From assembly GCF_003790525.1 (NCBI RefSeq), contig NZ_CP033635.1: DNA of 64,000 nt; one strand, 5' to 3'. Below the pieces are notes generated by a model. That model worked only from the letters and a program-made list of their open reading frames with translations. It was not told the DNA's origin and made no database searches. Source of the DNA: Escherichia coli. GTDB taxonomy: Bacteria; Pseudomonadota; Gammaproteobacteria; Enterobacterales; Enterobacteriaceae. Positions 21,551-64,000 of the stretch are shown here, piece by piece; positions within the stretch are counted from its first letter, which is position 1, and each line of letters opens with the position of its first letter. The position numbers and the translations under genes are program-made.

Positions 21551-21700
21551 ACAAGGGTGAGGGAGGATTTCTCCCCCCTCTGATTGGCTGTTAATAAGTG
21601 GCGAAACTTACAAGTAACAACACAATCAGTATGATGACGAGCTTCATCATAACCCTTTCCTTCTGTAAGGCCCCTTCCTCGGGAGGGGCTTTCCCGTTTC
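21551..21700 (+). ncRNA. sibE: Sib-type antisense RNA, copy 2; ends approximate
   Basis: Same architecture as copy 1, with the terminator hairpin at ~21671-21688. Confidence 0.5.
21591..21650 (-). CDS. ibsE: Ibs-family type I toxin, 19 aa (MMKLVIILIVLLLVSFATY)
   Basis: Minus strand: ATGATGAAGCTCGTCATCATACTGATTGTGTTGTTACTTGTAAGTTTCGCCACTTATTAA. Confidence 0.7.
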   Translation of the reverse strand: MMKLVIILIVLLLVSFATY

Positions 21701-28947: not shown

Positions 28948-28961
28948 AGCCTGTTTCCCTG

Positions 28962-29630
28962 TTATTTGCTTGCTAACTCACGGATAAGGTCTGCCATCGC
29001 GTCGATGGATTTGATGCTCTTGGTGTAGATCAAGTACTTACCATTAACGACATAGGCTGGAACCCCCTGGATTTTGGCGACATCATAAGAGGCTTTCCAT
29101 TTTTCCAGTGTTTCTTGAACCGCTGGTTCTTTCAGTGCCGCTTCAAAATCCGCCTGACTCATACCTGCGGCATCCAGACCGGTTTTGATAAAAGCAGCCG
29201 GATCTTTACCGTCAGACCAGCGTTCTTTTTTGTCGTGATAAGCCACGTAGTAGGCAAACTTGGCTTTCTTAAACTGAGAGTTAGCATCAAATAAGGAAAT
29301 GCCTGCTGCTTTATCTTTATTGATCAAGACCGCAAAGACTTCGCTTGCTTGTTTGCCGTATTCACCTTTGGTTTCCAGATGGAACGGCGTGAAAGCAACG
29401 ATATCTTTCACTTTTTCCGATACCGGACCGGTAACCGCTTTGTCGTACTTGTAACAGAACGGGCAGGCGTAGCTGAATACCTTAATCAGCGTTTTGTCTG
29501 CATTCGGAATAGGTTTTTCCAGAACCATGTAATCCGTGCCTTCGGTAAATGCAGAAGCGGTAAATGAAACAGCCAAAGCTGCGGTAAGCAGTATGCTTTT
29601 AAATAGTGATGAGATCCCTAATTTCGACAT
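28962..29630 (-). CDS. dsbL: DsbA-like periplasmic thiol:disulfide oxidoreductase
   Basis: 222-aa ORF with a signal peptide and CPFC active site ([10 protein letters not shown]). Confidence 0.85.
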
Positions 29631-29647
29631 TTTTATTCCCTTCTTAA

Positions 29648-31444
29648 TTATTTGAACATCTGTTGTGGACGGACTAACAATGCACGATAGTGAGTCTGAT
29701 TGGGTTTATCTGACAGCACGTCGATTTCCACTTTCACTTCTTTGGTTTTGTAATCGATTTCGTTCAACTTACCGACGGTTGGCTGCCCGACATCGAACAA
29801 ATGAATAGAACCACCGAAGCCAAACATGGTGTTACGGTCGGCTTGATATTCAATGATGGAGGTGATTGGGCTATAGAAATCGTAGCCACGTTCTTTACCG
29901 TATTCCCACACTTGCTGAACGGTGCCTTTCTTCTCATCAATCTTATATTCCACAAAGCGGGAATATTTCATGGTTGGTAAGGCAGGTTGTTCCAGATGAC
30001 GACCATCGCCATTATCAAAAATGGTGAGCGTTCCTTTGCTGGAAATCCAGGCGGTATGCTGGGTGTAGGTAAAGTCGAAGTCTGAGTTTTCGCACAGGCC
30101 ATTTTCGTTACAGGTAATTGGCTTACCGTTAGCATCAACCGGTTTCAGCAGCTTGCTGGCCAGCGGTTTTTCCCAACCTTTAGAGGGTGCAAGGATCCAT
30201 TTCACTTGCTTATCACGACCAATCTTCACAACACCCTGGTGACGAGAAGAGAGAATAATTGAGTCATCTTTTGCGTCATAAGCGATGGAATTAACGTGCG
30301 CCCAGTTACGGCCTGGCCCTACACCCAGAGCGTCGCCGAACGGTGTATCTGGTTCCAGTTTTGCCTGTTGTCCTGCATGGGCAAGGTCAACGTTAACGCA
30401 AACTGCACCTGCATCCAGCGCGCCGAGCAGTGCATCGCGTTTCGGATCGAGGATCTTCGTCAGATCCCATACATCTACAACGCGACCAGATTTATCGACT
30501 TCGAGGATATGGTCACGAATGGTGGTGACGTGTACGCCGTCATCGCGACGATAGTTACTCTTACCTACGCGCAACAGTACCGTGCCATTTGGCGTCTCAA
30601 TGGATTCATGAGTAGCGTCAGCAAATCCGCGCGGTAGTTTGTGATCTTCGAGCACCTGCCCCATCATGTCGAACTCGTACCAGTGCTGACCTTGTACAGC
30701 GGTAAAGGTGCCGCGTGGCGTTTCGCGGATACCCATCAGATAACCACGTTTGTTAATGTTGCGGTCACGACCATCGTAGAAGGTGTTTTGATCCAACCAC
30801 CAGCGGTATTCGCCTTCCGTATCGACGATAAAGGTGAATGGCGCGATATCAAAAGGGAGTGCGCCAGTTGCCGGACCCGCATCAAGGATACCGGCATTTT
30901 TATCTTTCTCACCATGCCAGTGGAGATCGGAACCTTGGGCGGTAAAGGTGTGGGTATTAACCAGATAGAGGCGATCTTCAAAACCCGGTGCGACTTTAAT
31001 AACTTTGGTCTGTTGTAAATCGGAGATAGAGCGGTTATCCATGTAATTATTGACGATGGCCGAAGTGTGCACCACATAATCATCTTTCATGACCTTGCCG
31101 TTTTCTTTCCACTCAACGGTCACTTTGTTAGCAAATTTCTGATAAAGACCAAAAATCGGTACACCATCGTAAGTTTTTAGTGATTCCTGACCCACGGGAT
31201 AGCTGATTTCTACGCCTTTTTCGCCCTTCCCATGGACGGTAACTCTGACGTCAGAAATAACATGGCTATCTAAGTCAACCAAAGCGGTCAGTGGTGCATT
31301 GCCGTAGGGATCGACAATGACCGCACCCAGTTGCCCGGCAGGCGGCGCTGGTTTAAAACCCGCAGCCATCACCCCCGATGCTGACAAACCCAGGGTTATC
31401 GCCACAGTTCCGGCTACGAGTGTTTTTCTATATTTATCAAACAT
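29648..31444 (-). CDS. assT: Periplasmic arylsulfate sulfotransferase
   Basis: 598-aa ORF with a signal peptide; recognised as AssT by family resemblance and by the dsbL-dsbI partners. Confidence 0.88.
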   Translation of the reverse strand: MFDKYRKTLVAGTVAITLGLSASGVMAAGFKPAPPAGQLGAVIVDPYGNAPLTALVDLDSHVISDVRVTVHGKGEKGVEISYPVGQESLKTYDGVPIFGLYQKFANKVTVEWKENGKVMKDDYVVHTSAIVNNYMDNRSISDLQQTKVIKVAPGFEDRLYLVNTHTFTAQGSDLHWHGEKDKNAGILDAGPATGALPFDIAPFTFIVDTEGEYRWWLDQNTFYDGRDRNINKRGYLMGIRETPRGTFTAVQGQHWYEFDMMGQVLEDHKLPRGFADATHESIETPNGTVLLRVGKSNYRRDDGVHVTTIRDHILEVDKSGRVVDVWDLTKILDPKRDALLGALDAGAVCVNVDLAHAGQQAKLEPDTPFGDALGVGPGRNWAHVNSIAYDAKDDSIILSSRHQGVVKIGRDKQVKWILAPSKGWEKPLASKLLKPVDANGKPITCNENGLCENSDFDFTYTQHTAWISSKGTLTIFDNGDGRHLEQPALPTMKYSRFVEYKIDEKKGTVQQVWEYGKERGYDFYSPITSIIEYQADRNTMFGFGGSIHLFDVGQPTVGKLNEIDYKTKEVKVEIDVLSDKPNQTHYRALLVRPQQMFK

Positions 31445-40069: not shown

Positions 40070-42211
40070 TCAAAATTCCATTTTCACCGTGAATTGCACT
40101 TCACGAGGATCGCCAATCTGGTTGCCCAGATTATTTGTGGCGATGGAAGAGGTGTAATACGTTTTATCAAACAGGTTTTTGACGTTTAATTGCAGTGTGA
40201 CCGGATACTGCAATTTCATTTTGTATGCGGCGAAGGCATCGGCAACGAAATAGCCTGGCAGATAATAGTCAGCCCCATTGGTTGCCGAACGACGGCTTAC
40301 GCCATGTCCACCACCGCCAAACGTCAGTGTGTTATTGCCAGGCATGTTATGAATGTCATAAGTCAGGAATAGCGAACCGGTATGACGAGGAACATTCGGC
40401 AATGGTTTCCCTGCATAATCAGGATCCTCCAGAACCTTAGCATCGGTATAGCCGTAGCTGGCAATGATATTAATGTTTTCAGTTAATGCTCCCGCAAGGT
40501 CGACTTCTACCCCTCTTGAACGAACACGGCCTGCCGTTTTGGCAATGGTTTCATCACCAACACTTTCGGTATACAACACATTACGTTTATGGATATCAAA
40601 CAGCGCAATATCTGCGGTGATACCATCGAATAGCTCGAATTTTGCCCCGACTTCGTAAGCATTAGATGATTCCGGTGGAAGATCGCCAATGTAGCTGGCA
40701 ATTGACGACTGCGGCATAAATGTTTGCGAATAATTGGCAAATAAGGATACCGATGGCGTCAGTTTGTAGACTAACCCCAGTTTGGGAGTCCATTGTTCAT
40801 CGCGGCTGTCAGTATTGACATTAAAAGGACGGCCTTTACCCGCATACTGCGTGTAATACTGATAGCGGATCCCGGCGACGGCAATCCAGTTATCGGTCAG
40901 ATAGAGTGCGTCCTGTGCATACGCTGAGTAGCTCTCCTGTTTGATCGTCTGATCACTGTCCGACGCCGAAACCGTTGTACATTTGCTGGTATTACCATAA
41001 ACAGGGTTGTAGATATTGAAATCTTTAGCTTTTTTACAGCGAATCATATCTGTACGCAGAAGATCATAATATTCATATGACACCCCACCCAGAATCTCAT
41101 TATAGAATCCGGCAATATCAACATTCCCTTGCAGATCCGCACGAGTAGCATGCATACGCTGGGTAGATCCCTGAGTTGCATCAACACGCCGTGTCAGTGT
41201 TCCTGTCGTTGCATCATACGCGGTAACACGCGCCTGATTATCGCTGTATTTATCCTGGCTGTAGCTGTAATCAAAGCGCGCTGTCCACTGGCTATTGAGA
41301 TGATATTCTGCGTTGAGTTGCGCCAGATCGGACTTTCCATCTGTAATATTAAACGGTTCGTCAAAACGTATTTTTCGATCAACGTTTACGGGCTGTTTCG
41401 TCGTAAGGTCGAAAATCGTTCCACGATCGAACGGAGTTTTATAGTCCCGATGGGAATAGAGCATAGTTACTGTTGCATTATCACCAAACCAGGTGAGTGA
41501 CGGGGCAATAAATGTACTGCGCTCTTTACCGAAGTTTCGCCAGTAATCTTCATCCTGCACTTCCCCGGTAAGGCGATACGCCAGCTGAGTGCCTTCAATG
41601 GGACCTGTGATATCAAGTTGCCCAGTGCCGCCACCAAAACTGGAGGAGGTGGCTGAAACCGAACCATGGAATGTTTTTTCCGGGCGCTTGGTCACGACGT
41701 TAATCAGTCCACCAGGATCGAGAATGCCATACAGCGTGGAGGCCGGACCTTTTAGCACTTCCACACGTTCTGTGGCGGCGTTGAAACTGCGAGGAAGTAC
41801 AGTTCGCAGGCCGTTGGTCATGATGGAGCCATCCCGGTTAGCACCAAACCCACGACGTACAAAGGCGTCCTGAGTTCCGCCTAATGTATTGGTCTGTACC
41901 ACGTTACTGACGTTATAAAGCGCTTCATCCAGCGTCGTCGCATTCTGATTTTCCAGAACCTGATCGCTAACAGTATTGACCACCTGCGGGATATCCAGCA
42001 TCGGCATATCGGTTAATGTCGCCGTGGAAGTGCTCAGAGGTTGATAACCATCGGTTGCCTCAGTTGCGGTATTTGCATCTGCTGTAACAGTGATTGTTTC
42101 GCCATCTTTGGTCGTTACAGAGTCTGTTGCATGAATCATCGGTGCCGCAAAAAGCAGTGAAAAGAGCGCCCGACCTTTGAGTCCTGAGAATGAAGGTGTG
42201 AACATAGCCAT
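40070..42211 (-). CDS. TonB-dependent outer-membrane siderophore receptor (accessory)
   Basis: 713-aa ORF with a signal peptide, TonB box ETITVTA, plug and beta-barrel, and a C-terminal aromatic residue (MEF). Confidence 0.85.
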   Translation of the reverse strand: MAMFTPSFSGLKGRALFSLLFAAPMIHATDSVTTKDGETITVTADANTATEATDGYQPLSTSTATLTDMPMLDIPQVVNTVSDQVLENQNATTLDEALYNVSNVVQTNTLGGTQDAFVRRGFGANRDGSIMTNGLRTVLPRSFNAATERVEVLKGPASTLYGILDPGGLINVVTKRPEKTFHGSVSATSSSFGGGTGQLDITGPIEGTQLAYRLTGEVQDEDYWRNFGKERSTFIAPSLTWFGDNATVTMLYSHRDYKTPFDRGTIFDLTTKQPVNVDRKIRFDEPFNITDGKSDLAQLNAEYHLNSQWTARFDYSYSQDKYSDNQARVTAYDATTGTLTRRVDATQGSTQRMHATRADLQGNVDIAGFYNEILGGVSYEYYDLLRTDMIRCKKAKDFNIYNPVYGNTSKCTTVSASDSDQTIKQESYSAYAQDALYLTDNWIAVAGIRYQYYTQYAGKGRPFNVNTDSRDEQWTPKLGLVYKLTPSVSLFANYSQTFMPQSSIASYIGDLPPESSNAYEVGAKFELFDGITADIALFDIHKRNVLYTESVGDETIAKTAGRVRSRGVEVDLAGALTENINIIASYGYTDAKVLEDPDYAGKPLPNVPRHTGSLFLTYDIHNMPGNNTLTFGGGGHGVSRRSATNGADYYLPGYFVADAFAAYKMKLQYPVTLQLNVKNLFDKTYYTSSIATNNLGNQIGDPREVQFTVKMEF

Positions 42212-42311
42212 TTAGTCTGTTATCCCAAAAACTCGCGGATTGTCGCGAGTGAAAATTGTTTCTTATTGCTCACTAAGCACTATCCGTTTGTTATTTCGCC
42301 ATCGGATATGT

Positions 42312-42330
42312 AATTGAGAATCATTCAATC
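42312..42330. promoter_or_regulatory. Candidate Fur box in the divergent receptor/ABC promoter region
   Basis: aattGAGAATCATTCaatc partially matches the GATAATGATAATCATTATC consensus (about 12 of 19). Confidence 0.25.
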
Positions 42331-42584
42331 ACGCAGTAATGTAGTAGTAAATGAGAAATAACAAAAAATTGCTACATGTGTTTTTATGAAAAGTTTATAC
42401 AATTTGATTGCTTTTAATTTATTGATATTTAATGGTTTTGTTTTTATGTGCAAAAATATTTTACCTGTTATTTACCTTGTTTTTGTGTGGCTTTTAACTG
42501 CTTGACTACTACATTTTGTGGCGTCAAACTCTCAAAGGAGAATGAGTTTTATTTTTGTTTGTCTTTGATTAAGTTGGCGTACAC

Positions 42585-43394
42585 GTGGCACATAACGCAA
42601 AAGGGCAGGGGCTGATCCTCGACAATGTTTCTGCCGGGTATCACAAGAAAATCATTGTTGATGGTGTTTCTTTCTCCGTTCCCACAGAAAAAATGACCGT
42701 TCTGGTTGGGGCAAACGGCTGTGGAAAGTCGACGCTGCTCAGCACCATTGCTCGTATCTTGCAACCCATGGGCGGTTCGATATTGCTGGATGGTAAAGCG
42801 ATTCACGAGCAACCAACGAAAGCGTTATCCCGTAGACTTGGGATCTTGCCGCAGTCGCCATTATTGCCGGAGGGCTTAACCGTTTATGAACTGGTGTCGC
42901 GTGGGCGTTTTCCCTGGCAGAATTTCATTCGTCAATGGAGCGACGCCGATGAGCTGGCGGTAGAAGAGGCCCTGAAATTAACGGGTACGCAGGAGTTTGC
43001 ACATTTACCTGTTGAAAAACTCTCTGGTGGGCAGCGCCAGCGTTGCTGGATTGCGATGGTGTTGGCGCAAAAGACGCCTTATATCCTGCTGGATGAACCC
43101 ACAACCTGGCTTGATTTACGTTATCAGGTTGAAATTCTTGAGTTATTACATGATTTAACGCGTCATCACGGGCGTACAGTCGTCGTGGTGTTGCATGATC
43201 TGAATTTTGCCGTCAATTATGGCGATACGTTGATATTTTTACGCCAGGGGAAAGTGGTGCGTGTGTTGAATGAGGGGGAGCATTGCACGCCTGAGCTGGT
43301 AAAAGCGGTCTTTGACGTTGATGTTCACGCATCAATAAATCCTCTGACGGGAAAGCCGTTCTTCATGCCGTTTCGTGGTGTAGAAAAAGTATGA
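42585..43394 (+). CDS. ABC transporter ATP-binding protein (FecE/FepC-like)
   Basis: Walker A GANGCGKST, signature LSGGQRQR, Walker B ILLDEP; GTG start with a weak SD. Confidence 0.85.
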   Translation: MAHNAKGQGLILDNVSAGYHKKIIVDGVSFSVPTEKMTVLVGANGCGKSTLLSTIARILQPMGGSILLDGKAIHEQPTKALSRRLGILPQSPLLPEGLTVYELVSRGRFPWQNFIRQWSDADELAVEEALKLTGTQEFAHLPVEKLSGGQRQRCWIAMVLAQKTPYILLDEPTTWLDLRYQVEILELLHDLTRHHGRTVVVVLHDLNFAVNYGDTLIFLRQGKVVRVLNEGEHCTPELVKAVFDVDVHASINPLTGKPFFMPFRGVEKV

Positions 43395-44374
43395 TGCGCA
43401 CAGGGCTGGTTACTGTAATTTTCCTCGCCTTACTGCTGGTGGGATGCGTGGTATATCCAGGGATTGGTGCCCGATTTATTGCACCACAAACGGTGTTGCA
43501 GGCATTTCTTCATTTTGATCCGCAAAACTTCGATCACAACGTAATTGTAAGACTCCGTTTGCCGCGTTTAGCGGCAGCATTGCTTACCGGTGCTTCTCTT
43601 GGAGTTGCTGGTGCTTTGTTGCAGGCTGTCATTCGTAACCCATTGGGGGAGCCACATATTTTAGGCTTAAATGCCGGAGCCGCTCTTGCTGTCGTTGCTG
43701 CCAGTGCGCTTGGGCTGGCCTTTCCGGTTGGACGCCCACTGCTGGCATCTACGGGCGGCGCGTTATTGTTCCTGTTGATATTGCTGCTTTCCTCCGCAGG
43801 GCGTTCAGGGTTAACGCCAATGAAAGTTACTTTATGCGGCGTGGCGCTATCGGCGTTCGTGTCCTCAATAACGGCTGCAATCCTGATTCTTGACGAACAA
43901 ACACTGCTGGCGATGCGGACATGGCTAGCAGGTGATTTAGCGGGGCAGGATTGGGCGACGCTGGGTACGTCCGCCTGGTTTTCTCTGGGGGGATTTGTGT
44001 TAGCCCTTTACCTTGCACCCTCCCTTAACATGTTGGCACTGGGCGATCGCATGGCGCAGGGGCTGGGCGTCTCTGTATTCCGCACGCGAACATTCACCCT
44101 GCTTGCGATCGCGTTGCTCTGTGGCGCAGCCGTATCGATTGCTGGCCCCATTGGTTTTGTCGGCCTGCTAGTACCGCAGATTGTCCGGCGTCTGGTATCA
44201 GCGGATCTGCGCGTTCTGCTCCCTCTTTCAGCTTGTGTCGGCGCACTTTTGTTATTACTGGCAGATATTATTGCCCGTACGCTTTTCACACCCCATGAGT
44301 TAGCGACCGGTGTCATGACGGCGTTAGTTGGTGCGCCTGTTTTTGTCATTATGGCGACGAGGATGTTCAAATGA
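43391..44374 (+). CDS. ABC transporter permease, FecCD family
   Basis: 327-aa polytopic ORF; start overlaps the ATPase stop. Confidence 0.85.
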   Translation: MMRTGLVTVIFLALLLVGCVVYPGIGARFIAPQTVLQAFLHFDPQNFDHNVIVRLRLPRLAAALLTGASLGVAGALLQAVIRNPLGEPHILGLNAGAALAVVAASALGLAFPVGRPLLASTGGALLFLLILLLSSAGRSGLTPMKVTLCGVALSAFVSSITAAILILDEQTLLAMRTWLAGDLAGQDWATLGTSAWFSLGGFVLALYLAPSLNMLALGDRMAQGLGVSVFRTRTFTLLAIALLCGAAVSIAGPIGFVGLLVPQIVRRLVSADLRVLLPLSACVGALLLLLADIIARTLFTPHELATGVMTALVGAPVFVIMATRMFK

Positions 44375-45420
44375 GTCGGATAATGAACGTCGGGCTACGC
44401 CCACTACGTGTTGGTAAGTTTTCGACACTGGTACGCCCTAAAAATCTGCTGTTGCTTGGTGGGCTGTTCCTGCTTGCGGTTGGAATACTGATATTCGGTC
44501 TGATGCAGGGTTCTTTCTCTGTTCCGGCATCGGAAGTAGGACGAGCGTTGTTTGCTCCAGAAAACGTAAGCACAGACGCACGTTATATTGTGCAGGATAT
44601 TCGCTTGCCGAGAGTCATCATGGCATTGCTATGCGGGGCCATGTTAGGTATGGCAGGGGCCGCAATGCAATCCATTGCACGTAACGGCCTTGCCGATCCT
44701 GGTTTAATCGGCGTCAAAGAAGGATGTAGCGTGGCTGTGCTGTGGCTGATTTTCCAGTTTCCAATGCTGGGAATGTTCTGGCGTCCAGTGGCTGGTCTTG
44801 CTGGTGGCCTGTTGGTGGCTTTAATCGTGATTTTTTGTGCGCGCGATATTTCCCGCCCGCGATTTGTTCTGATTGGTATTGGTGTTTCCTGGTTTTTCGC
44901 CGCCGGTATCGGTGTATTTATGACCACTGCAGATGTTCGAGATGTACAAACTGCATTGATGTGGTTATCGGGAAGCCTGCATGCAGCTAACTGGATGTTA
45001 GTCGCTATTTCAGCCTGTTGGATGTTGCCAGCCGCTCTTTTATTGCTGTTCACCGCCAGGACGGCGGATATCGCTCTGCTTGGTCATCAGGTTGCAACCG
45101 GGTTAGGGGTGAATAGTTCTCGTCTGGCGTTGTTACGTGTCGCTGCACCCATAATCCTGACAGCCGTCTGCGTTTCGTGTGTTGGTAACATCGGTTTTGT
45201 CGGATTGATAGCACCCCATATATCACGTTTTATTCTACGTGGCGGGCAGACGACATTACTGCTGGGGAGCGCGGTATCGGGGGCGTTGTTAGTTATTCTG
45301 GCGGATAGCATTGGTCGTTTGGCTTTTTTGCCTTTGCAACTGCCTGCCGGAATCATTATCTCACTGATTGGTGGACCATTTTTTTTGCTACTGCTCTGGC
45401 AGCGCAGGAACAGTTTTTAA
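44371..45420 (+). CDS. ABC transporter permease, FecCD family
   Basis: 349-aa polytopic ORF; overlaps the upstream permease by 4 nt. Confidence 0.85.
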   Translation: MSRIMNVGLRPLRVGKFSTLVRPKNLLLLGGLFLLAVGILIFGLMQGSFSVPASEVGRALFAPENVSTDARYIVQDIRLPRVIMALLCGAMLGMAGAAMQSIARNGLADPGLIGVKEGCSVAVLWLIFQFPMLGMFWRPVAGLAGGLLVALIVIFCARDISRPRFVLIGIGVSWFFAAGIGVFMTTADVRDVQTALMWLSGSLHAANWMLVAISACWMLPAALLLLFTARTADIALLGHQVATGLGVNSSRLALLRVAAPIILTAVCVSCVGNIGFVGLIAPHISRFILRGGQTTLLLGSAVSGALLVILADSIGRLAFLPLQLPAGIIISLIGGPFFLLLLWQRRNSF

Positions 45421-45430
45421 CGGGAGTTAT

Positions 45431-46378
45431 ATGCGTTTATTTTTTTCTCTGCTGATACTGTTGTCATTTTTTTCCCGTGCAACAGAACCTGTTCAGGTAT
45501 TTACTGATGATTTAGGGCGCAAAGTCACTGTTCCTGCTCATCCAAAGAGAATTGTCTCTTTACACGATCTTGATATCACTATTCCTCTGATTGAGCTCGG
45601 TGTACCTCCTGTCGCCAGCCACGGGCGAACTCGGCCTGACGGTAGCCATTTCATTCGATCTGGCGCGTTATTGACAGGTGTCGACTTTGATAATTCATCG
45701 ATCGCCTTTATTGGTACCGCTGATATTGATATTGAAGCGATTGTGGCGGCAAAGCCTGACCTGATCATCACAGAACCGACCCGTAATACGCCCATTGAAC
45801 AACTTGAAAAAATTGCGCCCACGGTGAGCATTGATCATCTCAAAGGGGGCGCGCCAGAAATCTATCGCAAGCTGGCAGAACTTACAGGAACGCAGTCGCA
45901 GCTGGCGATACTTGAACGCCGCTATCAGGCACAAATCAATGCGCTGAAGGCGACGCTGGACAGCCAAAAAATAACGGTATCGGTGATTCAGGCAAACCAG
46001 GGAAAAATTAATGTGATGCATAGCTATCATTCGCTGGGGCGGGTATTACGCGATGCTGGTTTTCGTTTTCCGCCGCTGATTGAGAGCATTCCTGAAGGTG
46101 GGCGAATGGATGTGAGCGCGGAGCGTTTACCTGAACTGGATGCCGATTTTGTTTTTGCAACCTGGCGCGGTGACACCGGTGGTAAACCTCAGGATGAGCT
46201 GGCAGCAATGGAAAAAGTCATGCCGGGATGGTGTCAGTTTCTGACTGCCTGTCGTTCCGGGCGTTATGTGCTGATTTCTCGTGAAGAGGCGATTTCTAAC
46301 TCCTTTGCATCTCTGGGGCTGATGGCTGCGCAGATACAATCACAAATTGCAGGGCGACCTCTACCGGAGGATAAATGA
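45431..46378 (+). CDS. Periplasmic substrate-binding protein (FecB/FepB-like, cluster A)
   Basis: Product starting MRLFFSLLILLSFFSRA (signal peptide) at the ATG at 45431, with a GGGAG SD. Confidence 0.8.
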   Translation: MRLFFSLLILLSFFSRATEPVQVFTDDLGRKVTVPAHPKRIVSLHDLDITIPLIELGVPPVASHGRTRPDGSHFIRSGALLTGVDFDNSSIAFIGTADIDIEAIVAAKPDLIITEPTRNTPIEQLEKIAPTVSIDHLKGGAPEIYRKLAELTGTQSQLAILERRYQAQINALKATLDSQKITVSVIQANQGKINVMHSYHSLGRVLRDAGFRFPPLIESIPEGGRMDVSAERLPELDADFVFATWRGDTGGKPQDELAAMEKVMPGWCQFLTACRSGRYVLISREEAISNSFASLGLMAAQIQSQIAGRPLPEDK

Positions 46379-47262
46379 TCCAGAAAGATAAAGCGCGGGT
46401 TGATATTTTTGGTGAGCGTTTTCGCACTCGCGCGAGTCAGTTAACGCCTGGGTTAAGAGTTGTCGCCAGCTACATTAATGAGCATCGTGAAGTGGTACTC
46501 GAGCAAACGGCGATGGAAATTGCGGCCACGTTGAACACTTCCGATGCCACAGTTATCAGGGCTATACAGGCCCTGGGGTTTGCCGGGCTGCGTGATCTGA
46601 AACGCACTCTGGAACAGTGGCTTGGTCCAGCCCTTAGTTCCAGCGAAAAGATGTCTACGACGGTGAGTAACTTGACGAGCGATGTTAACACCGCAATCGA
46701 CTTTGTTCTTGAAGGGCATTTGTATACCTGTAATGTCCTGTCAGAGCCTGAAAACCGCCACGCGCTTGCGCAAGCTGTAGCGTTGTTGGTGCAGGCACGG
46801 CAAGTCGCTATTTTTGGCATTGGCGCTTCGGGTATCCTGGCGGACTATACCGCACGACTATTCAACCGCATAGGTTTGCCTGCCACGGCACTAAACCGTA
46901 CGGGTATTGGCCTTGCCGAGCAACTGATCGCGCTTCAACGTGGCGATGTTCTGATCATGATGGCGCAAAAATCTGCGCACCGGGAAGGGCTGACAACGCT
47001 TCGTGAGGCGAGGCGGCTGGGGATCCCTGTTATTTTGCTGACAAACGCGCTGGATTCACGTTTTAGCAAAGACGCCAGTATCGTGATTCATGTTCCGCGC
47101 GGGGATGAAAAAGGGAAAACGCCGCTACATGGTACGGTATTGTTGTGTCTGGAAATGATTGTCTGGTCGGTAGCTTCCGCAGTGCCGCAGCGTGCGGTTA
47201 AAACCATTAAGCGAATTAACGATTTCCATCGAGGACTGAAAACGGGAAGAAAGAATGGCTAA
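46375..47262 (+). CDS. RpiR/MurR-family transcriptional regulator (HTH plus SIS domain)
   Basis: 295-aa ORF with an N-terminal HTH (TAMEIAATLNTSDATVIRAIQALGFAGLRDLK) and a SIS phosphosugar-binding fold (IFGIGASGILA); overlaps the binding-protein stop. Confidence 0.8.
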   Translation: MIQKDKARVDIFGERFRTRASQLTPGLRVVASYINEHREVVLEQTAMEIAATLNTSDATVIRAIQALGFAGLRDLKRTLEQWLGPALSSSEKMSTTVSNLTSDVNTAIDFVLEGHLYTCNVLSEPENRHALAQAVALLVQARQVAIFGIGASGILADYTARLFNRIGLPATALNRTGIGLAEQLIALQRGDVLIMMAQKSAHREGLTTLREARRLGIPVILLTNALDSRFSKDASIVIHVPRGDEKGKTPLHGTVLLCLEMIVWSVASAVPQRAVKTIKRINDFHRGLKTGRKNG

Positions 47263-49692: not shown

Positions 49693-50348
49693 TTCTCACC
49701 TAATGTGTAGCCAATACCATGAACGGTACGAATAAAATCACTGCCGAGTTTGCGTCGCAGATGATGCACATGCACTTCAACGGCATTACTGGTGACCTCT
49801 TCGTCCCAGGTATACAGTTTCTCTTCAATCAGTTTGCGCGGCAGTACCCGACCAGCGTTACGCATCAGTAATTCCAGCAGGGCAAATTCTTTTGGCTTCA
49901 GCGTTAAGGGTTCGCCAGCCAGCGTGGCGATACGTTTGCCGGGGTCGAGCATGACGTTGCCGTGGCGCAGCTCGTTGCTGGCCTGGCCGTTGGTTCGGCG
50001 CATCAGAGCTTCCAGCCTGGCGGCGACTTCTATCAACGCAAAAGGTTTACACAGATAATCGTCAGCTCCCAGACGCAGCCCTTCTACACGTTCCGCCAGC
50101 GCATCGCGCGCGGTCAGGATCAAAACCGGCTCACGCTGACCTTTTTCTCGCCATTCGCGCAAAATATCGCGACCATCCATGCCCGGTAAGGTTAAATCCA
50201 GGATCACCGCATCATAAGGTGCGCTATATAGCGCCTCTTTTCCCTGACGACCTTGTGTAAACCAGTCGACGCTAAAACCCATTTTACTAAGGCCCGTTTT
50301 GATGCCGTCGCCAATCAGCATGTCATCTTCTATCAGTAAAATTCGCAT
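49689..50348 (-). CDS. qseB: Response regulator QseB (OmpR family)
   Basis: 219-aa [18 protein letters not shown]...; overlaps the qseC start. Confidence 0.9.
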
Positions 50349-50499
50349 TTTTTCATCCCTGCGATAACCGTATTTGCTGCCAGTAAACCGTGTTGTAACG
50401 CGCTCTGTACAGCATTAAATTTTATTTTTTTCCCTTAAGAAGTTGTTAAGGACTATCTTGTTAAATGCTCGGAAACAGACATTAAAGGGAGTAATAAAC

Positions 50500-50892
50500 A
50501 TGAAAAAATACGCAGCAGTAATCGCAGTAATGGCCCTGTGCAGTGCACCGGTTATGGCAGCAGAGCAGGGAGGTTTTTCTGGCCCATCGGCAACGCAAAG
50601 TCAGGCCGGAGGATTCCAGGGGCCGAATGGCAGCGTAACGACTATAGAAAGCGCAAAATCCCTGCGTGACGACACCTGGGTAACCCTGCGCGGCAATATC
50701 GTTGAACGCATCTCTGACGATCTCTACGTGTTCAAAGATGCCAGCGGTACTATCAATGTTGATATCGACCACAAACGCTGGAACGGCATGACGGTGACGC
50801 CGAAAGATACGGTTGAGATTCAGGGTGAAGTCGATAAAGACTGGAATTCTGTTGAAATTGACGTCAAACAGATCCGCAAAGTAAATCCGTAA
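50500..50892 (+). CDS. ygiW: OB-fold periplasmic stress protein (BOF family)
   Basis: 130-aa product MKKYAAVIAVMALCSAPVMA...; ATG at 50500 with an AAGGGA SD. Confidence 0.85.
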   Translation: MKKYAAVIAVMALCSAPVMAAEQGGFSGPSATQSQAGGFQGPNGSVTTIESAKSLRDDTWVTLRGNIVERISDDLYVFKDASGTINVDIDHKRWNGMTVTPKDTVEIQGEVDKDWNSVEIDVKQIRKVNP

Positions 50893-50944
50893 TTGTTACC
50901 GCTCCCGGGACACGTTCCCGGGAATAATTTCGCAGGGAGGCAAA

Positions 50945-51427
50945 ATGACAAACCTGACACTGGATGTAAATATTATCGATTTCCCATCAATCCCTGTGGC
51001 GATGTTGCCGCACCGCTGTAGCCCTGAGTTGCTCAACTACAGTGTGGCGAAATTTATCATGTGGCGTAAAGAGACGGGGCTTTCTCCTGTTAACCAAAGC
51101 CAGACTTTTGGCGTCGCCTGGGACGACCCTGCCACCACCGCACCAGAAGCGTTTCGCTTTGATATCTGCGGCAGCGTTAGCGAACCGATCCCCGATAATC
51201 GTTATGGCGTAAGTAATGGTGAACTTACCGGTGGACGTTATGCTGTGGCCCGCCATGTTGGCGAGCTGGACGATATTTCACACACGATATGGGGCATCAT
51301 TCGCCACTGGCTTCCGGCAAGCGGCGAAAAAATGCGCAAGGCCCCGATCCTGTTTCACTACACCAATCTTGCCGAAGGGATGACAGAGCAGCGACTGGAA
51401 ACAGATGTTTATGTGCCGTTGGCGTGA
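50945..51427 (+). CDS. ygiV: GyrI-like domain protein
   Basis: 160-aa ORF MTNLTLDVNIIDFPSIPVAML... Confidence 0.8.
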   Translation: MTNLTLDVNIIDFPSIPVAMLPHRCSPELLNYSVAKFIMWRKETGLSPVNQSQTFGVAWDDPATTAPEAFRFDICGSVSEPIPDNRYGVSNGELTGGRYAVARHVGELDDISHTIWGIIRHWLPASGEKMRKAPILFHYTNLAEGMTEQRLETDVYVPLA

Positions 51428-51535
51428 TGAAGAATCTTTACCGGAGTGTGAGCCAAATCACTCGCGATAAGTTTGAGCGAACAATGCCACAGGCGTATTG
51501 TTGTTGGGCTTATAATTTCTCCGGTAAGGAATACC

Positions 51536-53143
51536 ATGTATACGCGAAATTTATTATGGCTGGTCAGCCTGGTAAGTGCGGCTCCTCTCTACGCTGCTGA
51601 CGTTCCCGCCAACACACCGCTCGCCCCGCAACAAGTCTTTCGTTACAACAATCATAGCGACCCAGGCACGCTCGACCCGCAAAAGGTGGAGGAGAATACT
51701 GCCGCGCAGATTGTGCTGGATCTGTTTGAAGGTCTGGTATGGATGGACGGTGAAGGCCAGGTGCAGCCCGCTCAGGCTGAACGCTGGGAGATACTGGACG
51801 GCGGCAAGCGCTATATTTTCCATCTGCGTAGCGGTTTGCAGTGGTCAGACGGTCAGCCTCTGACGGCAGAGGATTTTGTCCTCGGCTGGCAGCGCGCGGT
51901 TGACCCGAAAACGGCAAGCCCTTTTGCTGGCTATCTGGCACAGGCGCACATTAACAATGCCGCGGCTATTGTTGCGGGTAAAGCAGATGTTACATCGCTG
52001 GGTGTCAAAGCGACGGATGATCGTACTCTTGAAGTTACGCTTGAGCAGCCAGTTCCTTGGTTCACGACGATGCTCGCCTGGCCGACGCTGTTCCCGGTTC
52101 CTCATCATGTCATCGCTAAACATGGCGATAGCTGGAGTAAGCCAGAGAACATGGTTTACAACGGTGCCTTTGTGCTTGATCAGTGGGTAGTTAACGAAAA
52201 GATTACTGCACGCAAAAATCCAAAGTACCGCGATGCGCAACATACAGTATTGCAACAGGTTGAGTATCTGGCGCTGGATAATTCGGTCACCGGCTATAAC
52301 CGCTATCGCGCGGGAGAGGTCGATCTCACCTGGGTTCCGGCGCAGCAAATTCCCGCCATTGAAAAATCACTGCCTGGCGAGCTACGAATTATTCCGCGTC
52401 TGAACAGCGAATATTACAACTTCAACCTTGAGAAACCGCCATTTAACGATGTGCGGGTGCGTCGGGCGCTATATCTTACGGTTGATCGACAGCTTATTGC
52501 GCAAAAGGTACTGGGGTTGAGAACGCCCGCAACTACGCTGACGCCGCCAGAGGTAAAAGGCTTTAGCGCGACGACGTTCGATGAACTGCAAAAGCCGCTG
52601 AGTGAGCGCGTCGCGATGGCAAAAGCCTTGTTGAAACAGGCGGGATACGACGCCTCTCATCCGCTTCGCTTTGAGCTGTTCTACAACAAGTACGATCTGC
52701 ATGAAAAGACCGCGATAGCGTTGTCTTCCGAATGGAAAAAATGGCTGGGTGCACAGGTGACGCTGCGCACAATGGAGTGGAAAACTTATCTTGATGCCCG
52801 ACGAGCCGGTGATTTCATGTTGTCTCGGCAGTCGTGGGATGCGACGTACAATGATGCCTCCACCTTTCTGAACACGCTTAAGAGCGATAGCGAGGAAAAT
52901 GTCGGCCACTGGAAAAACGCGCAGTATGACGCCTTACTAAACCAGGCGGCACAAACGGCTGATGCAACAAAGCGTAATGCGTTGTATCAGCAGGCAGAAG
53001 TGATCATCAACCAGCAGGCACCGCTCATTCCTGTCTATTATCAGCCGTTAATCAAACTGCTTAAACCCTACGTTGGCGGTTTTCCGCTGCATAATCCCCA
53101 GGATTATGTCTACAGCAAAGAGTTGTATATCAAGGCACATTGA
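51536..53143 (+). CDS. ygiS: Periplasmic solute-binding protein, family 5 (OppA-like)
   Basis: Product starting MYTRNLLWLVSLVSAAPLYA at the ATG at 51536, with a TAAGGA SD. Confidence 0.85.
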   Translation: MYTRNLLWLVSLVSAAPLYAADVPANTPLAPQQVFRYNNHSDPGTLDPQKVEENTAAQIVLDLFEGLVWMDGEGQVQPAQAERWEILDGGKRYIFHLRSGLQWSDGQPLTAEDFVLGWQRAVDPKTASPFAGYLAQAHINNAAAIVAGKADVTSLGVKATDDRTLEVTLEQPVPWFTTMLAWPTLFPVPHHVIAKHGDSWSKPENMVYNGAFVLDQWVVNEKITARKNPKYRDAQHTVLQQVEYLALDNSVTGYNRYRAGEVDLTWVPAQQIPAIEKSLPGELRIIPRLNSEYYNFNLEKPPFNDVRVRRALYLTVDRQLIAQKVLGLRTPATTLTPPEVKGFSATTFDELQKPLSERVAMAKALLKQAGYDASHPLRFELFYNKYDLHEKTAIALSSEWKKWLGAQVTLRTMEWKTYLDARRAGDFMLSRQSWDATYNDASTFLNTLKSDSEENVGHWKNAQYDALLNQAAQTADATKRNALYQQAEVIINQQAPLIPVYYQPLIKLLKPYVGGFPLHNPQDYVYSKELYIKAH

Positions 53144-53280
53144 TGTCTTTATCGCCGTCGGAGCACGTCCGGCGGCGCTATTCACGCTGATCTCCTGTGA
53201 CTCGACGCGGCAGATAATGTAGTATCTCCGGCAATATTGCCCCTTTGAAGGCTGGCGAATAAGTTGAGGAATCAGAATTA

Positions 53281-58067: not shown

Positions 58068-59414
58068 TCAGGTCGAAAATAATCCTGGCAGCATCAGACT
58101 AAGCTGCGGGAAATAACAAATAATTGCCATTACTACAAACAATGCCAGAAACATCGGCAGTAATGGTTTTATTGCCCTGTCGATACTGACCTTACCAATG
58201 CTGCAACCAACAAACAGAATGGTGCCAACGGGTGGTGTACAAAGGCCAATGGTCAAGTTGAACACCATAATAATACCGAAGTGGATGGGATCTATTCCCA
58301 GATGCTGAGCGATCGGCAGGAAAATAGGCGTAAATATCAGGATCGCCGGTGTGATATCCATAAAGGTACCGACGATCAACAGAATGATATTGATGATAAA
58401 CAGAATAACCCATTTGTTATCCGAAACACTGGTAATCAGTTCGTTGATCAACTCAGGAACATCAGCATTCGTCATGGCCCATGACATCCCCATCGAGCAG
58501 CCTACCAGTAACAGAACAATTGAACTGGTTACTACCGAATCTAACAGAATATCATTGAGCTTCTTAAAAGTGATTTCCCGGTAAATCATCGCCAGGGCTA
58601 AACTATAAATTACCGCAATTGCCGATGCTTCCGTGGGCGTGAATACCCCTGCGATAATACCGCCAATAATGATAAAAATAAGCATCAGGCTGGGAATTGA
58701 TTCGCGGAATACCTGCAAAAATTGATGAAAATTGATACGTTCGGCCACCGGATAATGGTTACGTCGCGCATAAAGTGCCGCCACAAACATTAAAGCAGCA
58801 GCGGTGAGAATGCCTGGCAAGTATCCGGCTAAGAACAACGCAGCAACAGAAGTCCCGCCACTGGCGAGGGAATAAACAATCAACACATTGCTCGGTGGGA
58901 TCATCAGGCCAATGGGGGCAGAGGCAATATTAACCGCTGCTGAAAACGCCGGATCATAGCCCTCTTTTTCTTGCAGTGGTGACATAATTCCACCTACCGC
59001 GGCGGCTGACGCAACGGCTGAACCTGAAATCGCACCAAACAGCGTATTCGCGAGGATATTACAATGAGCCAGTGAGCCAGGAAGACGCCCAACTAATGCT
59101 TGCGCTAGGTTAACCAGTCGTCTGGCTATACCACCGGTATTCATAATGTTTCCGGCTAACACGAAGAAGGGAATGGCTAATAGCGTAAAGCCATCCAGCC
59201 CCACAGTCATCTTTTGCGAAATCACAGAAATGGCGGCATCGGGTGGTAAGGCAGTAATAATAGATAACAGCGAAGAAAGACCAATCGCAAAAGTAATTGG
59301 CACACCGATTGCCAGCATGACGGCAAAACTGCCAAATAAAATTAAGACGGGGTAGATATATTCAAAGTCCATATTTCCCTCGTTAATGAAAATTCCGTTT
59401 ACGATAGTTGTCAA
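58068..59414 (-). CDS. TRAP transporter large permease (DctM family)
   Basis: 448-aa polytopic ORF; the true start may be the internal MDFEYIYP. Confidence 0.85.
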   Translation of the reverse strand: MTTIVNGIFINEGNMDFEYIYPVLILFGSFAVMLAIGVPITFAIGLSSLLSIITALPPDAAISVISQKMTVGLDGFTLLAIPFFVLAGNIMNTGGIARRLVNLAQALVGRLPGSLAHCNILANTLFGAISGSAVASAAAVGGIMSPLQEKEGYDPAFSAAVNIASAPIGLMIPPSNVLIVYSLASGGTSVAALFLAGYLPGILTAAALMFVAALYARRNHYPVAERINFHQFLQVFRESIPSLMLIFIIIGGIIAGVFTPTEASAIAVIYSLALAMIYREITFKKLNDILLDSVVTSSIVLLLVGCSMGMSWAMTNADVPELINELITSVSDNKWVILFIINIILLIVGTFMDITPAILIFTPIFLPIAQHLGIDPIHFGIIMVFNLTIGLCTPPVGTILFVGCSIGKVSIDRAIKPLLPMFLALFVVMAIICYFPQLSLMLPGLFST

Positions 59415-59865
59415 TAATATTCATTACTGAATACCAGACCAGAATAAGTCCACTGACAGGCATAACCCAATATACTTTATCCATTGGCCATTTTAATACT
59501 GGAGAGATTTGTCCAACATGTTGTGCTTTTTCAACAACAATATTCCCGCCATAGATCATGAAAATAACCGCAAAGACCGTAATAATAATTTGGATAAAAC
59601 TGTCAAGCGTCAGAACAGATGCAGCCGGAAGTTTTTGAGCCAACAAATCAATGGCCAGATGTTTTTTTAACCCCGCAGTATATACACCGCCAAGTAAAAT
59701 CATCCACATAAATAAAATCTGGGTGAACTCATCAAGCACAGTGCTGGGAGCGTTAAAAATAAAACGTGCAATAACTTGCTAGGTTACGCAGAACACCATA
59801 ATGGCGAGAATAATGCAGCAACATCCGGCAAGGATCTTATTAAGAATATGAGTGAGTGTTCGCAT
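59383..59865 (-). pseudogene. TRAP transporter small permease (DctQ family) interrupted by an in-frame TAG at codon 29
   Basis: ATG at 59865 with a GGAAG SD, giving MRTLTHILNKILAGCCCIILAIMVFCVT, then TAG (59781-59779), then the frame continues QVIARFIFNAPSTVLDEFTQILFMWMILLGG... to 59383. Confidence 0.6.
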
Positions 59866-59906
59866 AAGTCTTCCATGAAAAGGCAGGAATTACCTGCCCA
59901 TTAGGG

Positions 59907-60890
59907 TTACATACTTTCTACTAGCTCAAGGTTTTTGGCTGATTGTGCATCTTTCGCCTTGAATTCATCGTATAACGGTTTGACGCGTTCTTTGAAAGCG
60001 GATTTATCAACATCAACAACTGTTGCGTTCATCCCTTTCATTTTGTCGTAGGCTTCTTTTTCAGCCGCAGGCCAGATGACGTCCTTCATCTGCATCATGG
60101 ACTCATCGGCTGCTTTTAATAATGCCGTGCGCTCTTTATCACCAAGTTTATTCAACACGTTGGTGCTGATAATTAACACATCAGGTACCATGGTGTGTTC
60201 ATCACGTGAATAGACTTTTGCGACTTCGGCGTGACGCATATCGGAATAGACAACGGTATTGTTCTCTCCGCCATCAACCACTCCTTGCTGAAGTGCGGTG
60301 TAGAGTTCGCCTTGCGCCATCGGGGTAGCGACACCACCGAGTGCTTTCATCATTGCAATGGCGCTGGGGCTTTGTTGAACCCTGATTTTCATTCCCGCTA
60401 AATCTTCAGGTTTTGTAATCGGTTTATTGGAATAAAAACTTCTCGCACCGCCGTCATAGTACGTAATACCAACAAAACCTTTGCTTTCTGATGAATTAAG
60501 TATTTTTTTACCTAAATCACTTTGCAGAACACGATAATAGTGATCACGGTCGCGGAATAAGAACGGCAGACTGAAAAGGCTGTAATCTGGAGCAAATGAT
60601 TCTAGTGATGCGGCATTAACCTTAACCATCTGTAATGCACCGGAGTTCATTAATTCCAGTGATTCACGCTCATTACCTAATGTTGCATTTGGGTAAATGC
60701 GAATAACTAATTCACCATTAGAATACTCTTTGGTTTTATCCGCTAAATAGCTTAATGCTTTATGGACAGCATGGCTTTTATCCTGATTATGACTCAGTTT
60801 TAATGTTGTTTTTGCCAGTGTGGTATTAGATATTAATAAACAACTGGTTAACAGCATAAGCGATGCCGTCAGAGGACGAAGTGCTTTCAT
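59907..60890 (-). CDS. TRAP transporter periplasmic solute-binding protein (DctP family)
   Basis: 327-aa ORF with a signal peptide and DctP-type fold. Confidence 0.85.
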   Translation of the reverse strand: MKALRPLTASLMLLTSCLLISNTTLAKTTLKLSHNQDKSHAVHKALSYLADKTKEYSNGELVIRIYPNATLGNERESLELMNSGALQMVKVNAASLESFAPDYSLFSLPFLFRDRDHYYRVLQSDLGKKILNSSESKGFVGITYYDGGARSFYSNKPITKPEDLAGMKIRVQQSPSAIAMMKALGGVATPMAQGELYTALQQGVVDGGENNTVVYSDMRHAEVAKVYSRDEHTMVPDVLIISTNVLNKLGDKERTALLKAADESMMQMKDVIWPAAEKEAYDKMKGMNATVVDVDKSAFKERVKPLYDEFKAKDAQSAKNLELVESM

Positions 60891-60962
60891 ATCCTGCTCC
60901 TGGTTAATATAACAGAAACGATAAATACAGCGCTTTTCTATCGTTATAATAAAAAGTAGTGA

Positions 60963-61973
60963 TTAATTCTCTGCCAGATAATGGAATATTCCTGCCGGAA
61001 CCGGAATACCTTCCTGTTGGCATTTTTCTTTGTAGTGTATTTGCGGATCGTTCGGCGCTAACACTTTTTCGACACCGGGAGCCGGTTTAACGGCATGCAG
61101 CTCCGTGACCATTTTCGCCATGGTTTTTGCAAAAACAGGATTGCCGAGCTTTTTCGGATCGATGGCAATAACCAAACTTGCCAGCTTACGCATCTTGTCA
61201 TAATCACCATACATGCGAACAATATGGTTGCCAAAATTCGCATTCATCAGCACGCCAGTCAGTGCATCAATAGCCAGTGCAATGCCTGAACCTTTGTGTT
61301 GGCCGAAAGGTAGCAGGTTTTCAATCTTATACGGATCAGTGGTGCCATAACCGTTTTTATCTATCGCCAGCCCTTCACCAATATGTTTTCCGGTTTCCTT
61401 TGCATGAAGTATTTTGCCGAAAGCCGTGGCACTGGTCGCCATATCAACAATCATCGGATGGCTGTTTTCCACCGGGAAACCAAAGGCGATGGGGTTAGTT
61501 CCCAAAAAGCGCTCGGCGCCGCCATGGGGAGCCACACAGGTATCGGTTTGCGTCATTACGATAGCAACCAACCCTTTGTTGGTGATCATCTCTGCAAAAT
61601 AAGATAACGCACCACAGTGAGACGTGTTTTTAACGCTAACAAAACCGAGGCCCTCTTGCTGGGCCAGTTTAATAGCGTGCTCAGTGGCGCTAATTAATGC
61701 GGAATGCCCCATTCCGTCGTCAGAGTCGAGAATGGCCACTGACGGTGAAATTTGCTCAATGCTAAACTGCGGGGCTTTATTTAACCCTCCGGCAGCAAGG
61801 CGGGTGCAATAATGTTCGACACGCATAACACCATGTGAATGCACACCTGTAATATCGGCATGTACTAAAACATCTGTCACCTGTTGTGTGGTGTCGGTAT
61901 CCAGCCCGGCGGTATGTAATTTGTGGTGCACCAGTGATTTTAAATTTTCTTCACTGACATAAACAGTTGTCAT
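60963..61973 (-). CDS. Ldh_2-family (malate/L-lactate/sulfolactate type) NAD(P)-dependent dehydrogenase, YiaK-like
   Basis: 336-aa ORF ...HGVMRVEHY...GHSA...HKGSGIA... Confidence 0.8.
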   Translation of the reverse strand: MTTVYVSEENLKSLVHHKLHTAGLDTDTTQQVTDVLVHADITGVHSHGVMRVEHYCTRLAAGGLNKAPQFSIEQISPSVAILDSDDGMGHSALISATEHAIKLAQQEGLGFVSVKNTSHCGALSYFAEMITNKGLVAIVMTQTDTCVAPHGGAERFLGTNPIAFGFPVENSHPMIVDMATSATAFGKILHAKETGKHIGEGLAIDKNGYGTTDPYKIENLLPFGQHKGSGIALAIDALTGVLMNANFGNHIVRMYGDYDKMRKLASLVIAIDPKKLGNPVFAKTMAKMVTELHAVKPAPGVEKVLAPNDPQIHYKEKCQQEGIPVPAGIFHYLAEN

Positions 61974-61983
61974 ATTTGTTCCC

Positions 61984-63000
61984 TTAAAAAGTGATCACAC
62001 CCTTGACCATATTTTTATTTTCTACAACGTTACGCTGGTAATCTTCGCCAACACTAAAGAAATTGAACGCCTGGTTTTTCATTAAATTTTCGTGAATTTT
62101 ATTGCTGCGCATCAGTTCAATCACCAACGCAAAATCTTCCCGTGTGGCATTGCGGCTGCTGAGTAACGTTGTCTCTTTTTTATGGAAGGTCGGATCGTCA
62201 ATAACAAGTTCACCAATGTACAAACCGATGAAAACAATTTTGCCGCCATGACGAATAAGATTTACATCATGACTCATTGAAGCTTTATTTCCCGTCGCAT
62301 CCAGTACTACGCAAGCCAGTTCGCCTCCAAATACTTCACTAAGCGCGGCAATAAAACCTTCCTGTGTTGGGTCGAAGACATTAATTGCCAGATGATCCAC
62401 AACGTGCTGGCGACGTTGACAGTCAATATCAGCAACAACAACATGCGCCCCTTTAGCCCTGGCGATGGCTGCGGTAGCCAAACCGATTGGCCCAGCACCA
62501 ATCACCAGTACGTTTTGTTCAGCCTTGATCTCTGCCCGACGAACGGCATGTGCACCAATGGCGAAACATTCAACCAATGCTCCGGCACTGTCGCTGACCT
62601 CGTCAGGGAGAGGCACAAGGTTGTCTTCACGTACCGCAAGGTACTCACTAAAACCCCCATCCTGATGCACGCCATACAGCGAAACACGTTCGCAGCAGTT
62701 CGTTTTCTCTTCCCGACAGGCTGCGCACTCGCCACACGGAATGCATGGGATGACGGAATAGCGCTGGCCTGATTGTGCTGTTTGGCACTGGCTGCCTCGC
62801 GAAACCGCTTCGGCGCATATTTCATGACCTAATACACGTGGGTAGCTAAAAAAAGGCTGTCTGCCGGCAAAAGCGTGAATATCAGTACCACAAATACCCA
62901 CAGCTTTGATTTTTAACAGCACTTCATTATCTGCTGGTGTGGGAATATCCTTTTCCACATATTCCATAACGCCAGGCTGCTGACAAATTAATGTTTTCAT
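61984..63000 (-). CDS. Zinc-dependent medium-chain alcohol/polyol dehydrogenase
   Basis: 338-aa ORF with GHE, CxxC...C zinc sites and a GAGPIG NAD-binding motif. Confidence 0.8.
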   Translation of the reverse strand: MKTLICQQPGVMEYVEKDIPTPADNEVLLKIKAVGICGTDIHAFAGRQPFFSYPRVLGHEICAEAVSRGSQCQTAQSGQRYSVIPCIPCGECAACREEKTNCCERVSLYGVHQDGGFSEYLAVREDNLVPLPDEVSDSAGALVECFAIGAHAVRRAEIKAEQNVLVIGAGPIGLATAAIARAKGAHVVVADIDCQRRQHVVDHLAINVFDPTQEGFIAALSEVFGGELACVVLDATGNKASMSHDVNLIRHGGKIVFIGLYIGELVIDDPTFHKKETTLLSSRNATREDFALVIELMRSNKIHENLMKNQAFNFFSVGEDYQRNVVENKNMVKGVITF

Positions 63001-64000
63001 TTCTGCTCATCCGATAATAATTGGCTGATGGTGGCCTTGATGCCTTTGTTTTTTATATTCGCAAAGGCGATTTTTATTTCATTTATAAATGGCTGATGGT
63101 TGCTTAAATCACCAAATATGGCGCTAAGGTGCAGTAATGCGAGCGCCTGTTGCCATGCGTCTTGTTGTTCCTTTATTAGCGCCTGAAATTGGTCATTCAT
63201 TGGATCAGCGGCAGACTGGCTTTTCTCAACAGCATCAATGACATAATGCAACCAACCAGCAATGAGCAGTGACAGAACAGCATTGTTTTGCTTTTGCTGA
63301 TGCAATTTCAGCCAGGGCGTCAGCGCTCGCTGGGGAAGCTTTTGTGAACCGTCCATGGCTATTTGCCCGGTACGGTGTGCAACGTTACGGTTGCTAAAGC
63401 GTTCAATTAACAGGTCGGCGTATTCCTGGATGTTGATATTTAAGTCTGGATTAAGTGTTCGGGCTTGTTCATTAATCATCAGTTGGTGGGTAATGGAACG
63501 AAAATTAGCGTCTTCCATGCATTGCCAGATAAACTCATAGCCTGCCAGCGAGCCGTTATAAGCCAGAAATGAATGGCTACCATTTAACATGCGTAACTTC
63601 ATCTCTTCATAAGGCTGAACATTGCTGACAAACATCGCGCCGGCTTTATCCCATTGTGGTCGTCCGCGCACAAAATTATCTTCGATCACCCACTGACGAA
63701 ATGATTCGCAGACGATCCCGCAGGGATCGGCATAACCGGTTTTCGTTTCCAGTAAGGCGAATTGCGATTCAGTCATTGCCGGAACAATGCGATCTACCAT
63801 CGTGCCTGGAAATGAGACATTTTCTTCGATCCACTGAGCCAGGGGCTGGTCCAGTTGTCGGGCAAAACCGAGAACGGCATTGCGCGTCAGATGCCCATTG
63901 TCTGGCAAGTTGTCACAGGAGAGCACACTAAAAGCGGCGAGTCCTGTCGCTTTACGTTGTTGCAAAGCACAGACGATCACGCCAATAGCTGACAGAGGCG
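62997..64000 (-). CDS. Mannitol-dehydrogenase-family oxidoreductase (mannonate/fructuronate reductase-like), N-terminus outside the window
   Basis: The frame stays open to the window edge; the C-terminal 330 or so residues are of mannitol-DH type; overlaps the Zn-ADH start by 4 nt. Confidence 0.75.
   Translation of the reverse strand, partial: PLSAIGVIVCALQQRKATGLAAFSVLSCDNLPDNGHLTRNAVLGFARQLDQPLAQWIEENVSFPGTMVDRIVPAMTESQFALLETKTGYADPCGIVCESFRQWVIEDNFVRGRPQWDKAGAMFVSNVQPYEEMKLRMLNGSHSFLAYNGSLAGYEFIWQCMEDANFRSITHQLMINEQARTLNPDLNINIQEYADLLIERFSNRNVAHRTGQIAMDGSQKLPQRALTPWLKLHQQKQNNAVLSLLIAGWLHYVIDAVEKSQSAADPMNDQFQALIKEQQDAWQQALALLHLSAIFGDLSNHQPFINEIKIAFANIKNKGIKATISQLLSDEQK

Follow-up and report, generated by a model that had tools for sequence, protein, structure and literature searches.

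In Escherichia coli K-12, the MqsRA type II toxin-antitoxin (TA) module is encoded between ygiV and ygiS. In the stretch of E. coli DNA considered here, which comprises 64 kb and is referred to as the window, the same two genes are separated by 108 bp. This locus raises the question of whether the strain lost mqsRA, carries it at another position, or never received it.

The ygiV-ygiS junction and its K-12 counterpart

The window and K-12 share the genes that flank the locus, in the same order and orientation (qseCB / ygiW-ygiV ... ygiS-parC), including the upstream arrangement qseC-qseB / ygiW-ygiV. Between the two sequences, 127 of 130 residues are identical in YgiW, 158 of 160 in YgiV, and 529 of 535 in YgiS. 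Both the window sequence and its list of open reading frames (ORFs) place a 108-bp spacer (51428-51535) between ygiV and ygiS. The reading frame of ygiV closes with a double stop codon (TGA TGA), and the letters running past the gene are ...GTT GGC GTG A TGA AGAATCTTTACCGG... The spacer is made up of 2 nt of the second stop codon, the 5-nt string AAGAA, and a 101-bp block that adjoins ygiS (Table 1).

The first-pass annotation had claimed that ygiV ends at 51427 and ygiS starts at 51536, leaving 108 bp without an ORF. This was confirmed by the sequence, by the ORF list, and by the RefSeq annotation of two genomes. CFSAN061771, which is identical to the window over a 508-bp junction query, and SMS-3-5 are both annotated with ygiV, ygiS, and the same 108-bp gap. 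The only ORFs touching the spacer are upstream extensions of ygiS and a 42-aa minus-strand ORF (51409-51537), and the ORF list holds no plausible gene within the 108 bp. The 42-aa ORF was considered as a gene and rejected. A stop codon interrupts it in E. whittamii and in Escherichia SCPM-O-B-8794, so it does not represent a conserved gene.

Table 1. Features at the ygiV-ygiS junction (window positions unless stated otherwise)
Feature	Position	Strand	Remarks
ygiW, OB-fold stress protein, upstream neighbor	50500..50892	+	SMS-3-5 RefSeq annotation mapped to the window
ygiV, GyrI-like / AraC-family regulator	50945..51427	+	160 aa, intact
Empty site, AAGAA, 5 nt	51430..51434	.	Prefix/suffix match and alignments against K-12
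Conserved 101-bp block upstream of ygiS	51435..51535	+	Right flank, 100% identity to K-12
ygiS, periplasmic substrate-binding protein of ABC transporter	51536..53143	+	535 aa, intact
ygiS-deleted haplotype, E. coli M11	L003:3201-3745		Corresponds to window 51428-53280

The annotation of a K-12 derivative gives the order ygiV, 204 bp, mqsR, mqsA, 132 bp, ygiS. The same gene order appears in a published table (PMC5120126), and both sources agree with the K-12 order given in the first-pass annotation. When the window was aligned to the K-12 ygiV-ygiS region, 927 bp in K-12 stood against 5 bp in the window, as a clean indel with collinear flanks. Exact matching puts the last shared position on the left at 51429 and the first on the right at 51435. 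The K-12 cassette defined in this way comprises a promoter region of ~200 bp, mqsR (98 aa), mqsA (131 aa), and a terminator formed by a hairpin followed by a T run. Two ACCTTTTAGGT palindromes, the MqsA operators, lie in its upstream region. The window has AAGAA in place of all these elements. The G+C content of the cassette is 41.1%, compared with 52-53% for ygiV and ygiS. Target-site duplication, terminal repeats, and a recombinase gene, as signs of insertion, are all absent at the cassette. A search for direct or terminal repeats as an explanation for the insertion yielded only a 12-nt inverted repeat, which is described below.

A separate observation concerns the 3′ end of ygiV. Positions 51193-51430 show 93-95% identity to K-12 and to E. 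coli M11, compared with ~98% in the surrounding DNA. This pattern suggests a recombination patch in the lineage of the window, unrelated to mqsRA. The idea that the divergent 3′ end arrived together with mqsRA was rejected, since M11 lacks mqsRA and diverges from the window likewise.

Occurrence of mqsRA and junction haplotypes in E. coli

Searches of the window returned neither an MqsR toxin ORF (about 98 aa) nor an MqsA antitoxin ORF (about 131 aa). With the K-12 proteins as tblastn queries against the whole 64 kb, the best E value was 2.4 for MqsR and 0.56 for MqsA, the latter in an unrelated region. All matches are scattered noise, with none better than E = 0.56. MqsA operator palindromes of the form ACCT(N2-4)AGGT are absent from positions 50801-51700. 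The motif occurs twice in the whole 64 kb, which is the chance level (~3 expected by estimate). At positions 39001-64000, the window matches E. coli SMS-3-5 and about 25 other complete genomes with a rounded identity of 100%. SMS-3-5 belongs to phylogroup F and ST354 (PMC11537424).

Three haplotypes account for 5,407 of 5,426 complete E. coli genomes (2,299 + 1,754 + 1,354). mqsRA is present in 2,299 of them (42%) and is always chromosomal. The uninterrupted junction, as in the window, was found in 1,754 genomes, including those of O157:H7 RIMD 0509939, an APEC O2:K1:H4 strain, and SMS-3-5. The third haplotype (1,354 genomes) lacks mqsRA together with most of ygiS. The K-12 arrangement is a minority state, and ~58% of complete E. 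coli genomes are devoid of mqsRA. Across genomes, identity of the junction matches extends down to about 95%, and that of the mqsRA matches is at least 99% throughout. The near-uniform mqsRA sequence fits a young insert that spread by recombination.

The ygiS-deleted haplotype, represented by E. coli M11 and E2865, resembles the window in that it lacks mqsRA and keeps a 5-nt string (there GGGAA) followed by the conserved spacer. It differs in ygiS, which is intact in the window. In this haplotype, the gene gives way after its first 22 bp to 236 bp of unrelated DNA, and only its 3′ end is kept. An Rfam search of this 236-bp replacement DNA gave no meaningful match (E up to 1).

Ancestral state of the locus and competing explanations

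In an outgroup scan with a single genome for each species, ygiV was located in five Escherichia lineages besides E. coli; the locus search did not recover E. fergusonii or genera outside Escherichia. No MqsR or MqsA match lies next to ygiV in any of these five lineages. E. albertii, E. whittamii, and SCPM-O-B-8794 carry ygiV, a spacer of ~110 bp, and an intact ygiS. In Escherichia sp. E1V33 and in MOD1-EC7003, ygiV is followed by remnants of ygiS. Together with the 1,354 E. coli genomes described above, these fragments show that loss of ygiS has occurred more than once. Across all five outgroup lineages the spacer can be aligned, including an (A/G)(A/G)GAA string at the position of the K-12 cassette. 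Likewise, mqsRA-less Escherichia other than the window carry GGGAA or a similar short string at the empty site.

Three observations argue for an ancestral empty site and a later gain of the cassette: the outgroups are empty, the G+C content of the cassette is foreign, and all mqsRA copies are nearly identical. Features of a never-occupied site are apparent in the sharp indel with collinear flanks, the empty outgroups, and the atypical, low-diversity insert. From sequence comparison, we assign a probability of about 0.92 to the reading in which the uninterrupted ygiV-ygiS junction is ancestral, the K-12 lineage gained the cassette, and the strain never received it. On this view, the 108 bp are what the genus Escherichia ancestrally had between ygiV and ygiS, with nothing inserted. 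A foreign cassette of 927 bp would have replaced the 5-nt string just after the ygiV stop codon in the ancestry of K-12 and related strains; we infer this direction of the event, that is, a gain. The window strain would represent an SMS-3-5-like lineage of phylogroup F that never received the cassette and holds no other copy. MqsR-family toxins occur in 73 records of a plasmid collection, from diverse Proteobacteria, and 30 of these are predicted to be conjugative. This plasmid occurrence is compatible with a mobile origin of the cassette.

Two other accounts would leave the same junction with a different history for the module. The source genome is represented here by 64 kb, and MqsR-family genes reside on plasmids of other Proteobacteria; mqsRA or a diverged homolog might thus occupy another chromosomal or plasmid position outside the window. 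A chimeric query, composed of a 2-kb window segment absent from K-12-like genomes and the mqsRA coding region, speaks against such a relocation. It matched one place in each of 30 complete genomes that are 100% identical to the window segment, and no mqsRA copy was found elsewhere in them at megablast sensitivity (roughly at least 85% identity, copies below that level being missed). All 2,312 places at which mqsRA occurs in the 2,299 carrier genomes are chromosomal, and no match was obtained among all E. coli plasmid records or, for MqsR, in a phage collection. In a published survey of 950 E. coli genomes, all MqsR sequences fell into one group (PMC10790755). Split junctions number 2,304 (7,728 places minus 5,424 genomes), which is within a few of the number of mqsRA carriers, so there is no class of genomes that combines an empty junction with a relocated mqsRA. 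Relocation appears very improbable against these data. The reading that the strain probably lacks mqsRA altogether is supported, and for the genome beyond the 64-kb window it draws on the near-identical complete genomes.

Secondary loss, in which an ancestor had mqsRA between ygiV and ygiS and the module was later either deleted or exchanged for an empty allele by recombination, is improbable. The spacer is scarless and carries the outgroup 5-nt string at the exact insertion point, and a simple deletion would not restore this string, although recombination with an empty allele would itself leave no scar. Chromosomal TA modules are known to decay or be lost (a study on ccdO157 decay is among the references of PMC7167474), and the locus is unstable: 1,354 genomes and two further Escherichia lineages have lost ygiS. 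However, all five outgroup lineages are empty, and the mqsRA copies, with their high identity and foreign G+C content, indicate that the species acquired the module recently and did not carry it from early on. A mis-assembly or laboratory deletion in one record has a negligible chance of being correct, as the same uninterrupted junction recurs in 1,754 independent complete genomes. Under the preferred reading of a cassette gained in the K-12 lineage, the first-pass annotation requires one amendment. Its statement that the strain is without MqsRA holds for the window and for the 30 closest genomes, but the module it described as missing would never have been inserted, rather than lost.

The view of mqsRA as an accessory element, also put forward at that stage, agrees with the 2,299 carriers among 5,426 complete genomes. 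Fiedoruk 2015 and Ramisetty and Santhosh 2016 reportedly describe mqsRA as rare in B2. MG1655, W, EDL933, and UTI89 have no TA system in common (PMC7167474). The works cited in that paper include Fiedoruk 2015, for the finding that type II TA systems are spread unevenly over the E. coli phylogroups, and Ramisetty and Santhosh 2016, for horizontal transfer. In addition, the AIEC strain NRG857c has no MqsRA homolog (PMC7232551). The absence of mqsRA is an ordinary and already documented lineage difference. It is of the same kind as the published presence/absence polymorphism of type II TA systems among E. coli phylogroups, with a TA module between core genes in some lineages and an intact empty site in others. 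What the present analysis contributes beyond that polymorphism is, for the mqsRA locus, the precise coordinates of the junction, counts over 5,426 complete genomes, and a test against outgroups.

In K-12, MqsRA has been credited with control of rpoS, csgD, GhoT, and ygiS mRNA, and these roles were later contested (PMC6918082). Because ~58% of complete E. coli genomes and five other Escherichia lineages are without the module, any such role of MqsRA would be lineage-specific and lie outside core E. coli physiology. Annotation, and the choice of natural mqsRA-negative controls, can make use of the exact junction and of the counts for the three haplotypes. Their importance is modest, and they open no new question.

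The block upstream of ygiS and further features of the window

The 101-bp block, which in K-12 comes after the mqsA terminator, is 95-97% identical between the window and other Escherichia species, compared with 80-90% in the adjoining coding bins. Within it lie a perfect TATAAT (51511-51516) and AAGGA (51526-51530), the Shine-Dalgarno sequence of ygiS. For K-12, a published table places a putative promoter before ygiS and a terminator after mqsA (PMC5120126). A consensus scan for sigma-70 promoters and terminators across 50300-51700 produced hit counts that matched those of shuffled sequence and flagged only a weak 5-bp hairpin (51484-51496). The ygiS promoter was not called, which is attributable to a poor -35 element. 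Judged from its motifs, the block likely carries the -10 element of the ygiS promoter along with the ribosome-binding site. In this strain, ygiS would be transcribed from the conserved block and possibly also by read-through from ygiV. Such read-through may reach ygiS here because the K-12 terminator downstream of mqsA is part of the cassette and is absent from the window.

The block also contains the imperfect 12-nt inverted repeat mentioned above (51435-51446 / 51519-51530), whose far-upstream arm pairs with the ygiS Shine-Dalgarno sequence. The K-12 cassette starts exactly at the foot of the left arm. The predicted RNA fold has a z score of -3.8 and is stronger than that of 200 out of 200 shuffled sequences. 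A consensus fold of six Escherichia spacers has 35 pairs with 0 compensatory changes, which leaves the RNA structure unproven. An Rfam search of the spacer gave no meaningful match (E up to 5). Beyond a promoter, the block might form a leader structure that masks ygiS translation on transcripts reading through from ygiV, and the stem might also have served as the insertion target of the cassette; both ideas are doubtful.

Several other features of the window were recorded. Two tandem copies of a Sib RNA / Ibs toxin type I TA system lie at 21140-21665 on the plus strand (Rfam SIB_RNA, 142 and 144 bits), so type I TA loci are retained in this region of a strain that lacks mqsRA. By the SMS-3-5 annotation, the interval from ygiC to ygiD contains, at 28276-31444 on the minus strand, a gene for an aryl-sulfate sulfotransferase accompanied by dsbI and dsbA/dsbL-type genes. 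K-12 is not known to carry this aryl-sulfate sulfotransferase / dsbL / dsbI cluster. A TRAP-transporter and dehydrogenase cluster around 58068-64000 contains an interrupted small-permease gene (59383-59865, minus strand). Its translation shows an internal stop codon, and the gene is annotated as a pseudogene in SMS-3-5.

Between ygiN and parE (40070-47262), the window carries an iron-siderophore uptake cluster that is absent from K-12-like genomes. It encodes a TonB-dependent receptor, an ABC ATPase, two FecCD permeases, a binding protein, and a MurR/RpiR regulator. The cluster and mqsRA occur together in at most 13 of the 4,157 genomes that match the chimeric query, and this rarity is taken to reflect linkage and population structure. 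Compared position by position with SMS-3-5, the window shows 176 mismatches in positions 1-1000 and 5 scattered ones in the remaining 63 kb. Their concentration in the first 1,000 positions is probably the effect of a small indel close to the tRNA-Ile / nfeF end and not of true divergence.
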